DNA of 43,051 nt, taken from sequence record OR844702. One strand, 5' to 3'. Made by a program: the position numbers and the translations under genes. The stretch's first letter is position 1. Every line of letters begins with the position of its first letter. The notes under the pieces are model-generated. The model had not been told where the DNA came from. It was given only the letters and a program-made list of their open reading frames with translations, and ran no database searches. Positions 39,118 to 39,294 of the stretch are shown here, one piece after another. Origin of the DNA: Escherichia phage ECO104 4-5-2.

Positions 39118-39294
39118 CTGAAGGGGTAGCGGATAACCAAGACTACCCAGCCTAAAAGGACTTGAACGACGTCGGTAACTGCACCGCCTCTGCATCGAGG
39201 GAAGCAATGAGCTGCTAAGAGACAAAAGCAGCGCTAAGATGAATGTTCTTAGTTAAGCGTTGCATGTCGCAGCGCTGACTTAAGAGGATTTTAT
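39118..39294 (+). promoter_or_regulatory. Conserved structured RNA leader element, copy A (of 3)
   Basis: Hairpins H1 39124-39148 (GGGTAG/CTACCC, loop cggataaccaaga), H2 39187-39200, H3 39211-39232 (GCTGC/GCAGC, loop taagagacaaaa), H4 39234-39252 (ctaag/cttag), H5 39257-39275. Ends in the SD ttaagagg before ATG 39295. Confidence 0.5.

Follow-up and report, generated by a model that had tools for sequence, protein, structure and literature searches.

A structured, covarying leader RNA behind the strong host-type promoters of a Slopekvirinae podophage

Why does a podophage genome carry three paralogous copies of a ~178-nt element, each placed between a strong promoter and a small gene, and at which level is this element under selection? 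The question is raised by positions 39112-39289 of Escherichia phage ECO104 4-5-2 (sequence record OR844702), a circularly permuted assembly of a Slopekvirinae podophage of ~43 kb; the whole stretch of 43,051 nucleotides that was analyzed is called the window here. The three elements, copies A, B, and C, all lie on the + strand (Table 1). An initial annotation, made from the letters alone, had described them as aligning end to end, which they do with a mean column identity of 81%, and nhmmer as well as a covariance model built from the type-1 copies (defined below) returned exactly three matches in the window (187-198 bits). We found that the element is a structured non-coding RNA leader under RNA-level selection on the + strand. 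This leader RNA is previously undescribed and matches none of the T7 RNase III sites, lambda nut, and HK022 put. The earlier remark that it is too long for a T7-type phage promoter is right, but moot.

Stop codons were identified in all six frames of every copy, and indels between copies break the frame, which rules out a coding region. Among the three window copies, paired columns were 46-72% identical and unpaired columns 72-86%; paired columns are thus less conserved than unpaired ones, indicating compensatory drift of the stems while the loops are conserved. In 17-22 homologues, the modelled helices comprised 694 Watson-Crick, 83 G·U, and 1 A·C pairs, and this G·U:A·C ratio of 83:1 indicates that the pairing exists on the + strand transcript only. 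RNAalifold recovered the helices H1, H2a, H2, H3, H4, and H5 from an unedited MAFFT alignment, with compensatory changes in 22 of 50 pairs (three sequences) and 20 of 39 pairs (seven sequences). Homologues were taken from the Escherichia phages PAS7 and P64441, from IMG/VR and metagenome contigs, and from the Koutsourovirus phages phiKDA1 and Entb_48, and register-exact alignments were padded with N's to stop MAFFT from realigning them; L numbers below denote sequences used in the comparisons. For H1, H2a, H2, and the pseudoknot PK2, 99.2% of the cells were paired in 22 copies, compared with 62% after shuffling and 37-49% in slid registers. The corresponding values in 17 copies were 94.3%, 76%, and 40-47% for H3, the lower stem, and H5, and 97.9%, 80%, and 31-48% for H3, H4, and H5. 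In each of the three helix counts, the covariation score was matched by none of 500 shuffles. The alignment with homologues bore out the compensatory multi-hairpin fold and the selection on RNA, rather than on protein or DNA, that had been proposed (94.3-99.2% of cells paired against 62-80% in shuffles), as did every other test made. We hold the structural claims with high confidence.

The H1 stems listed initially (GGGTAG/CTACCC, GTAACG/CGTTAC, and GTAGCG/CGCTAC) were all present as written, as were the H2 stems CCTC/GAGG or TCCC/GGGA, and H3 and H5 also matched their description. That inventory was incomplete, since it overlooked H2a, the pseudoknot, and the competition of H4 with a lower stem that masks the Shine-Dalgarno (SD) sequence. 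The leader consists of a 5' module of ~95 nt and a 3' module of ~80 nt. The 5' module comprises H1 followed by H2a and H2, which are locked by the 3-bp PK2, and its junctions are purine-rich (CUGAAG, GAACG, GAA-NNN-AUGA). H1 was 100% paired in 22 copies, with double changes in 6 of 7 pairs, and H2a and H2 were likewise 100% paired. In PK2 (95.5% paired; all three pairs covary), the last three nucleotides of the H2a loop pair with the three nucleotides directly 5' of an invariant AUGA, thereby bracketing H2, and ten complementary variants were found (UGC/GCA, GCU/AGC, CGC/GCG, GUC/GAC, CUA/UGG, CUA/UAG, GUA/UAC, CUC/GAG, CGA/UCG, and CGG/CCG).

H1 forms, in related genera, the second stem of PK1, a classical H-type pseudoknot with the order S1, (G)CUGA(A), S2, S1', A-rich loop, S2', GA. 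In 18 sequences drawn from four lineages, PK1 was 100% paired, compared with 25-53% when the registers were slid. PK1 occurs in type 2, in type 3, and in the KP34 type; its stem S1 was not evident in the window copies, where an invariant GGC could instead pair with AGCC behind H1. The 5' terminal stretch of the transcript is unpaired in copies A and C. A long-range helix joining the 5' end GACGUUAG with CUAGCGUC in type-2 copies was rejected, being absent in PAS7 and clashing with H2a and PK2. A hammerhead-like core at CUGAAG was also discarded on inspection by eye: CUGAAA, CUGAAU, and CUGAGA occur in its place, and none of the Rfam ribozymes matched.

The 3' module starts with H3 (94% paired in 17 copies; double changes in 5 of 6 pairs), whose loop holds AAGAG or AGGAG and tends to match the true SD of its own copy, so that it could act as a standby site or competitor. 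The stretch behind H3 contains the strand CUUAGU(U), which has two alternative partners: GCUAAG upstream, forming H4, or AAUUAAGAG downstream, forming the lower stem. In the form with H4 and H5, the SD and the ribosome-binding site are free. In the closed form, the lower stem (11-12 pairs, including a 5-bp extension into the SD flank) stacks under H5, the upper stem of 7-8 pairs, via a 2x2 internal loop, yielding a two-tier hairpin of ~20 bp in which the SD is buried. Both alternatives were maintained in 17 copies: H4 was 100% paired, with a single G-C pair turned into C-G and, in the unbiased fold, a seventh pair that covaries, and the lower stem with its SD-flank extension was 94% paired with many double changes. 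In particular, all three strands have changed jointly in copy 3 of PAS7 and of L015 (GCUAAC, GUUAG, UUAAC), and a C-G pair is replaced by U-A in P64441 copy 1. The energy gap between the conformers ranged from -8.6 to +2.0 kcal/mol over the 17 copies (A +0.5, B -3.0, C -8.6). With so small a gap, the 3' module is bistable, its two states having the SD either open or closed. The isolated 3' modules of the window folded as the two-tier hairpin with z scores of -3.6 (copy A) to -4.9, and the equivalents in phiKDA1 and KP34 also did so. In the position-3 variant (L001 10540-10592, which is PAS7 copy 3, and L015 13230-13275), the masked strand is CUUAACUUUAUUA, which contains UUAACUUUA, the 'epsilon' enhancer of translation from T7 gene 10; the true SD there, AGGAGG, is found unmasked at a more downstream site.

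Every copy stands behind a host-type promoter. Sigma70 promoters were sought on the + strand in 33000-43051 and 1-15000, which make up the early and middle regions, and the best four matches were exactly those upstream of the copies, two of them in front of copy C. The promoter-to-leader distances of 25-140 nt agree with the initial annotation; each copy begins 25-63 nt behind a top-scoring match, and a tandem PC1/PC2-type arrangement was also found in PAS7 and Koutsourovirus. There is one leader copy per strong promoter, heading long host-polymerase operons. As had been noted, the element ends at the SD of a small open reading frame (ORF): the 3' end of every copy reads TTAAGAG(G/A), with ATG 6-8 nt further. 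The downstream genes themselves differ between copies and between phages. L015 and L068 lack a conserved counterpart of the first ORF of copy B, so that their next gene stands directly behind the leader, and copy 2 of L068 has a near-identical counterpart of the extra 10-bp hairpin of copy B. An intrinsic-terminator-like hairpin lies ~400 nt behind copy C, and PAS7, P64441, and L020 have its 18-nt core without any change; this terminator-like element would close, or attenuate, the copy C unit. In the interval from there to the next gene, at 6398, the promoter scan listed no strong match.

Two further observations concern the region in front of the leader. The PC1-PC2 interval of ~115 nt (window 5522-5607, L080 1907-2010) is conserved with Koutsourovirus and holds a covarying GNRA-capped hairpin behind a GGAGCC motif (ACCGgaaaCGGU in the window, CCCGguaaCGGG in phiKDA1), which PC1-initiated transcripts would bear as an additional 5' domain. 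Also, in PAS7 (L001 811-1077), an annotated 57-aa coding sequence (875-1045) intervenes between the promoter (811-839) and the position-1 leader, indicating that the leader can lie more than 230 nt downstream of its promoter, like putR in HK022.

Table 1. Positions in the window of the three leader copies, their structural parts, promoters, and neighbouring features.
Feature	Position	Strand	Details
Copy A leader	39112-39289	+	model match 39112-39287, 198.1 bits; conserved block AGGCAGCTGAAGG ... TTAAGAGGAT
Copy B leader	40945-41122	+	model match 40945-41120, 188.1 bits; 3' module fold z -4.0
Copy C leader	5658-5835	+	model match 5658-5833, 187.5 bits; z -3.15; 3' module fold z -4.9
Promoter PA (copy A)	39060-39088	+	TTGACT-17-TATAGT; 10/12 consensus matches
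Promoter PB (copy B)	40860-40888	+	TTGACG-17-TATAGT; 10/12 consensus matches
Promoter PC1 (copy C)	5493-5521	+	TTGACA-17-TATAGT; 11/12, best sigma70 match of the genome
Promoter PC2 (copy C)	5608-5637	+	TTGACA-18-TAAGAT; 10/12; 115 bp downstream of PC1
Copy A H1	39124-39148	+	GGGTAG / 13-nt loop CGGATAACCAAGA / CTACCC
Copy A H2a, H2, PK2	39173-39206	+	H2a CGGT/ACCG; H2 CCTC/GAGG; PK2 TGC 39180-39182 with GCA 39204-39206
Copy A H3	39211-39232	+	GCTGCT / SD-like loop AAGAGACAAA / AGCAGC
Copy A bistable module	39233-39289	+	H4 GCTAAG 39233-39238 with CTTAGT 39248-39253; H5 39257-39275
Copy A closed form	39243-39254 with 39278-39289, plus H5	+	buries SD GAGG 39284-39287
Copy B H1	40957-40981	+	
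Copy B H2a, PK2, H2	41009-41042	+	
Copy B H3	41047-41068	+	
Copy B bistable module	41069-41122	+	SD GAGG 41117-41120
Copy C H1	5670-5694	+	
Copy C H2a, PK2, H2	5719-5752	+	
Copy C H3	5757-5778	+	
Copy C bistable module	5779-5835	+	SD GAGA 5830-5833
First ORF after copy A	39295-39396	+	33 aa, hydrophobic; P64441 and L019 have homologues behind their position-1 copies
First ORF after copy B	41129-41272	+	47 aa, basic
Two small ORFs behind copy C	5842-6230	+	66 and 62 aa
Extra hairpin near 5' end of copy B transcript	40897-40931	+	perfect 10 bp, CCGGGAGGCG ... CGCCTCCCGG
Intrinsic-terminator-like hairpin and U tract behind copy C ORFs	6235-6264	+	AGCCCU...AGGGUU plus UUUAUUAU

The leader was also found behind the main early sigma70 promoter in related genera, namely in Koutsourovirus (phiKDA1, Entb_48, KKP 3828, SDFMU_EhYP, and SDFMU_Pec), Bucovirus (Buco), and Drulisvirus (KP34, where the promoter alone is annotated). 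Its layout there is PK1, a small hairpin, H2, and a two-tier hairpin abutting the SD. A pattern scan added 19 Drulisvirus-like contigs, and the KP34-type core was present in 172 GenBank phage records (143 Klebsiella, 14 Pectobacterium, 10 Escherichia, 2 Shigella, 2 Erwinia, and 1 Cronobacter), in most of them at 80-95% identity; nearly all of the matches sampled had no annotated feature underneath. The leader is present in at least four genus-level lineages of Slopekvirinae with hosts across Enterobacterales. The type-1 covariance model detected the Koutsourovirus forms (57-68 bits) and not the KP34 type; PK2 is absent from the latter, loop sequences differ between lineages, and there are three or more architectures. 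Other routes to relatives gave little: the neighbouring Rha/Ant-like DNA-binding protein led to unrelated prophages, the DNA polymerase to two loci, and one metagenome scan to two new contigs.

In the three-copy lineage, each genome has a single 5' module architecture: type 1 in the window, L015, and L068, and type 2, with an extra 5' hairpin and PK1, in PAS7, P64441, and L019/L020. The 5' modules are 76-82% identical within the window and 51-60% identical to type 2 at the same position. The 3' modules are 86-92% identical by position across genomes and 79-81% between the window paralogues. As the 5' modules group by genome and the 3' modules by position, the two modules evolve separately. The genome-uniform type of the 5' module resembles nut sites matched to their own N protein; nevertheless, tblastn of all early and middle ORFs against the type-1 and type-2 genomes found no protein with a matching distribution, which spoke against a lineage-specific protein partner in this search. 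Either a co-evolving partner or recombination may be the cause.

No described RNA family accounts for the leader, as had been suspected. At gathering score, Rfam 15 matched the whole window only at two group I introns, both elsewhere; searches of the three loci at E<=10 gave only chance snoRNA and miRNA matches, and those of the phiKDA1, Buco, KKP3828, and KP34 leaders at E<=5 gave nothing. ARAGORN found no tRNA or tmRNA gene in the window, and no description of the leader was found in the literature searched. A host-derived sequence was ruled out, as the copy C region had no blastn match in any of 5,426 E. coli genomes, even at E<=10. Mimicry of the E. coli rrn leader, with which the words GCAAGACG, ACCAAG, and GUGAAC are shared, was likewise rejected, since Smith-Waterman scores of the rrnB leader against 24 leaders did not exceed those of shuffles (z -0.9 to 1.5). 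The element contains no single-stranded boxA: the boxA-like CUCUUAGUUAA inside it is base-paired and covarying, and a boxA/nut reading of CUCUUAGUUAAG with H5 fails, as this strand is base-paired in both conformers and covaries. The only exact boxA of the window, TGCTCTTTAACAA (37510-37522), lies outside the elements, 16 nt behind a promoter-like site (37466-37494, TTGACG-17-TG-TATGCT) at the left end of the early region that has no leader. An exact boxA also stands upstream of the leader in L015, L016, L019, L021, L073, and Entb_48 (L082). From these sites, the sequences suggest that the phages might recruit the host Nus antitermination complex via boxA; no paper joining boxA, antitermination, and Autographiviridae was found in the literature.

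What might such an RNA do? The explanation that we prefer, with some hesitation, is a bipartite cis-acting leader of host RNA polymerase (RNAP) transcription units whose modules evolve separately. H4 would form first during transcription and leave a brief window for translation initiation; refolding into the closed hairpin would then mask the SD. Judging from the modelled conformers, SD masking in cis is probably a true function. In size and shape, the duplex of the closed hairpin would also correspond to the RNase III sites found ahead of T7 early genes. Cleavage in it might separate the 5' module from the mRNA and so determine how well the mRNA is translated and how stable it is; by this analogy, an involvement of RNase III is conceivable, albeit tentative. 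The 5' module could be a docking platform for a macromolecular partner. A macromolecular docking fold is suggested because its purine-rich junctions are conserved per lineage, its peripheral architecture is variable, and it is independent of the downstream gene. The favoured partner would be the transcribing host RNAP, which might thereby acquire put- or EAR-like resistance to pausing and termination; the second choice would be a protein or ligand that biases the switch between H4 and the lower stem. A put/EAR-type role is attractive because of the position of the leader at the head of each strong host-polymerase unit, the rrn boxA, and the conserved terminator after copy C. Still, an antitermination role of the 5' module is rather doubtful. 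It is unlikely, in our estimate, that the 5' module represents a new class of protein-independent nascent-RNA antiterminator, put/EAR-like in function and structurally unrelated, with the bistable hairpin coupling antitermination to timed translation and RNase III processing. The anatomy of the 3' part would fit the RNase III/stability and translational-control roles proposed initially, and all three roles named at that time, including a cis-acting element of another kind, stay candidates.

Several points weigh against this explanation. The curated alignments behind the pair counts were hand-fitted to the proposed structure, and many of their sequences share descent, so that independence is overstated in the shuffle statistics. 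In copy 3 of PAS7 and L015, it is UUAACUUUA and not the SD that the lower stem masks, and the true SD of phiKDA1 lies downstream of the hairpin. The T7 motif CCUUUAUGAU, which T7 sites share 3' of the upper stem, is absent from the leader, and since no usable consensus sequence exists for RNase III, the leader resembles T7 sites in shape only. The 5' fold has no similarity to put (70 nt, two stem-loops; PMC9378689). In addition, a scan of the KP34 early region revealed no convincing intrinsic terminator, and antitermination is therefore not obviously needed there.

The alternative that survives best, although we consider it quite unlikely, is a pure processive antiterminator, in which the leader, mainly its 5' module, would bind its own RNAP against pausing, intrinsic terminators, and Rho, with the 3' hairpin as an appendage. 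Paralogous copies behind each strong early promoter recall putL/putR (PMC9378689), host polymerase must travel >10 kb to reach the phage RNAP gene (11.8-14.3 kb of the window), and an exact rrn boxA behind the leftmost, leaderless promoter-like site, the conserved terminator downstream of copy C, and the independence of the leader from the identity of the downstream gene all point in the same direction. However, the architecture is unlike put or EAR and has no Rfam match, the scan of the KP34 early region brought up no strong terminator, and the covariation of the SD-masking stem and of H4 argues for a translation-level role of the 3' part.

A riboswitch or protein-operated switch, in which the 5' module would sense a metabolite or protein and its occupancy would set H4 (ON) against the lower stem (OFF), appears improbable. 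Such a reading would suit a pseudoknotted domain with conserved unpaired purines upstream of nearly iso-energetic conformers, one of which masks the SD, and a 5' domain type that is uniform per genome, as in nut sites matched to their own N protein. Yet no strand common to the 5' fold and the switch was demonstrated, the candidate GGC/GCU pairing being invariant, and tblastn found no lineage-specific protein partner. A metabolite riboswitch in particular is disfavoured because the putative aptamer core is not conserved between lineages (PK1, PK2, and the loops vary). Improbable, too, is an abundant, stable trans-acting RNA, whose cleaved 5' module would engage a host nuclease, RNA chaperone, or defence sensor as a decoy or sponge, or else a simple roadblock that guards early mRNAs against 5'-end-dependent decay: production from the strongest promoters at the start of infection, a compact double-pseudoknot fold, and conservation across Enterobacterales hosts would suit this purely speculative proposal, but no target complementarity or partner was identified, and the unpaired extreme 5' end of copies A and C leaves no classical 5'-terminal stabiliser. 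A DNA-level feature, such as promoter cassettes for recombination or gene shuffling (PeSL-like) or replication-origin structures with an incidental RNA fold, would account for the mosaic evolution of modules with different histories and different downstream genes, but it is scarcely credible and can be excluded because of the excess of G·U over A·C (83:1), which places the structure on the + strand transcript only, and of pseudoknot covariation that is inexplicable in duplex DNA, with stems that diverge around conserved loops.

The genome around the leaders has a phiKMV-like gene order with all genes on the + strand. Its closest annotated relatives are PAS7 and P64441 (RNAP identity 85-91%), followed by Koutsourovirus (73%) and by Bucovirus and Drulisvirus (~63%). 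The terminal 77 nt are identical (1-77 = 42975-43051), an overlap from circular assembly, and the physical genome end or repeat region is likely the G-rich non-coding stretch at ~37100-37400. The unannotated record OR850875.1 is essentially identical to the window, with a colinear early region of 99.98% identity; an apparent 166-bp indel proved to be an artefact of joined repeat matches. Relative to this record, the window has ~450 nt extra at 17560-18095, between the scaffold and capsid genes, with small ORFs at 17577-17828 and 17850-17978; apart from this stretch, the genome is 98.7-99.98% identical. The two group I introns (Rfam RF00028, 51 and 65 bits) lie at 3356-4042 and 31551-31804; the first splits the DNA polymerase region and holds a 180-aa ORF (3468-4010), and the second is flanked by ORFs 31046-31618 and 31900-33123, at the place where relatives encode the terminase large subunit. 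Additionally, OR847174, OR848645, OR844885, OR845888, OR844599, and OR850875, all from one study, are fragments 99.9-100% identical to this phage that carry the names 'Listeria phage', 'Escherichia phage', and 'Salmonella phage', with OR850875 flagged UNVERIFIED_ORG. The same sequence under different host names indicates that the host labels are unreliable and that cross-sample carry-over is likely.

Structured cis-acting leaders on phage early transcripts are already known from the T7 RNase III sites, lambda nut, and HK022 put. This leader combines one or two pseudoknots with a covariation-supported bistable SD-masking switch and is conserved behind the main host-type promoter, including that of KP34-like Klebsiella phages used in therapy. 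If antitermination or sensing were true, a new RNA class would govern the very first step of infection. If instead the leader were a processing and translation module, it would show how phiKMV-like phages handle host-polymerase transcripts and would provide a compact, portable part (promoter, leader, and masked ribosome-binding site) for phage engineering. Under the antiterminator reading, every Slopekvirinae host-polymerase unit would, with boxA, have its own antitermination signal, which would amount to a general, unnoticed layer of early-gene control with its core in >170 GenBank genomes.

Among known systems, the RNase III sites of the T7 early mRNA (R0.3, R0.5, R1.1, and others) lie, likewise in an Autographiviridae phage, in the host-polymerase early transcript, immediately upstream of gene SDs. 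Folded alongside, R0.3 and R0.5 gave irregular hairpins of about two helical turns that are built like the closed hairpin of the leader, with a lower stem, an internal loop, and an upper stem close in front of the SD. The leader differs in that its lower stem contains the SD and competes with H4, and in the pseudoknotted domain of ~95 nt upstream; it has no sequence homology to the T7 sites. The only word shared is the 11-nt TAGCGGATAAC, common to the H1 stem and loop of copy A (39127-39137) and the lower stem of R0.3 (T7 853-863; L107 454-464); given the different structural context, this identity may be chance.

Protein-independent RNA antiterminators in mobile elements include put, EAR, conAn2, and canT (PMC9378689, PMC11658703). 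The put RNA has ~70 nt and two stem-loops in a V shape, with a triplex in stem I (PMC9378689). Like putL and putR of HK022, the leader occurs as paralogous copies just downstream of early host-RNAP promoters, with stems that differ by compensatory changes, and is independent of the following gene. It differs in its length of ~178 nt, its five to six helices, its pseudoknot, and its SD-masking module, and there is no sequence or model match between the two. The put type also suppresses downstream terminators in cis and depends on the beta' zinc-binding domain; in the leader, the circumstantial counterpart is the conserved terminator 400 nt behind copy C.

The leader shares with translational riboswitches an anti-SD strand that pairs with either the SD or an anti-anti-SD, both of which covary, but it has no core conserved in architecture across all members, nor was a genomic association with a metabolic gene class found, the downstream ORFs encoding small proteins. 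SD-sequestering riboswitches, hok mRNA, and the leader of the MS2 maturation gene also have mutually exclusive pairings of close energies in which the open form comes first; in comparison, the upstream fold of our leader varies between lineages and its closed form is unusually long (~20 bp). The PeSL cassettes of T4-type phages, short units of an early sigma70 promoter plus one hairpin, have been interpreted as recombination sites. They resemble the leader as repeated modules of promoter and structure that head different small-gene units and evolve in a mosaic manner, whereas selection on the leader clearly targets a complex RNA fold.

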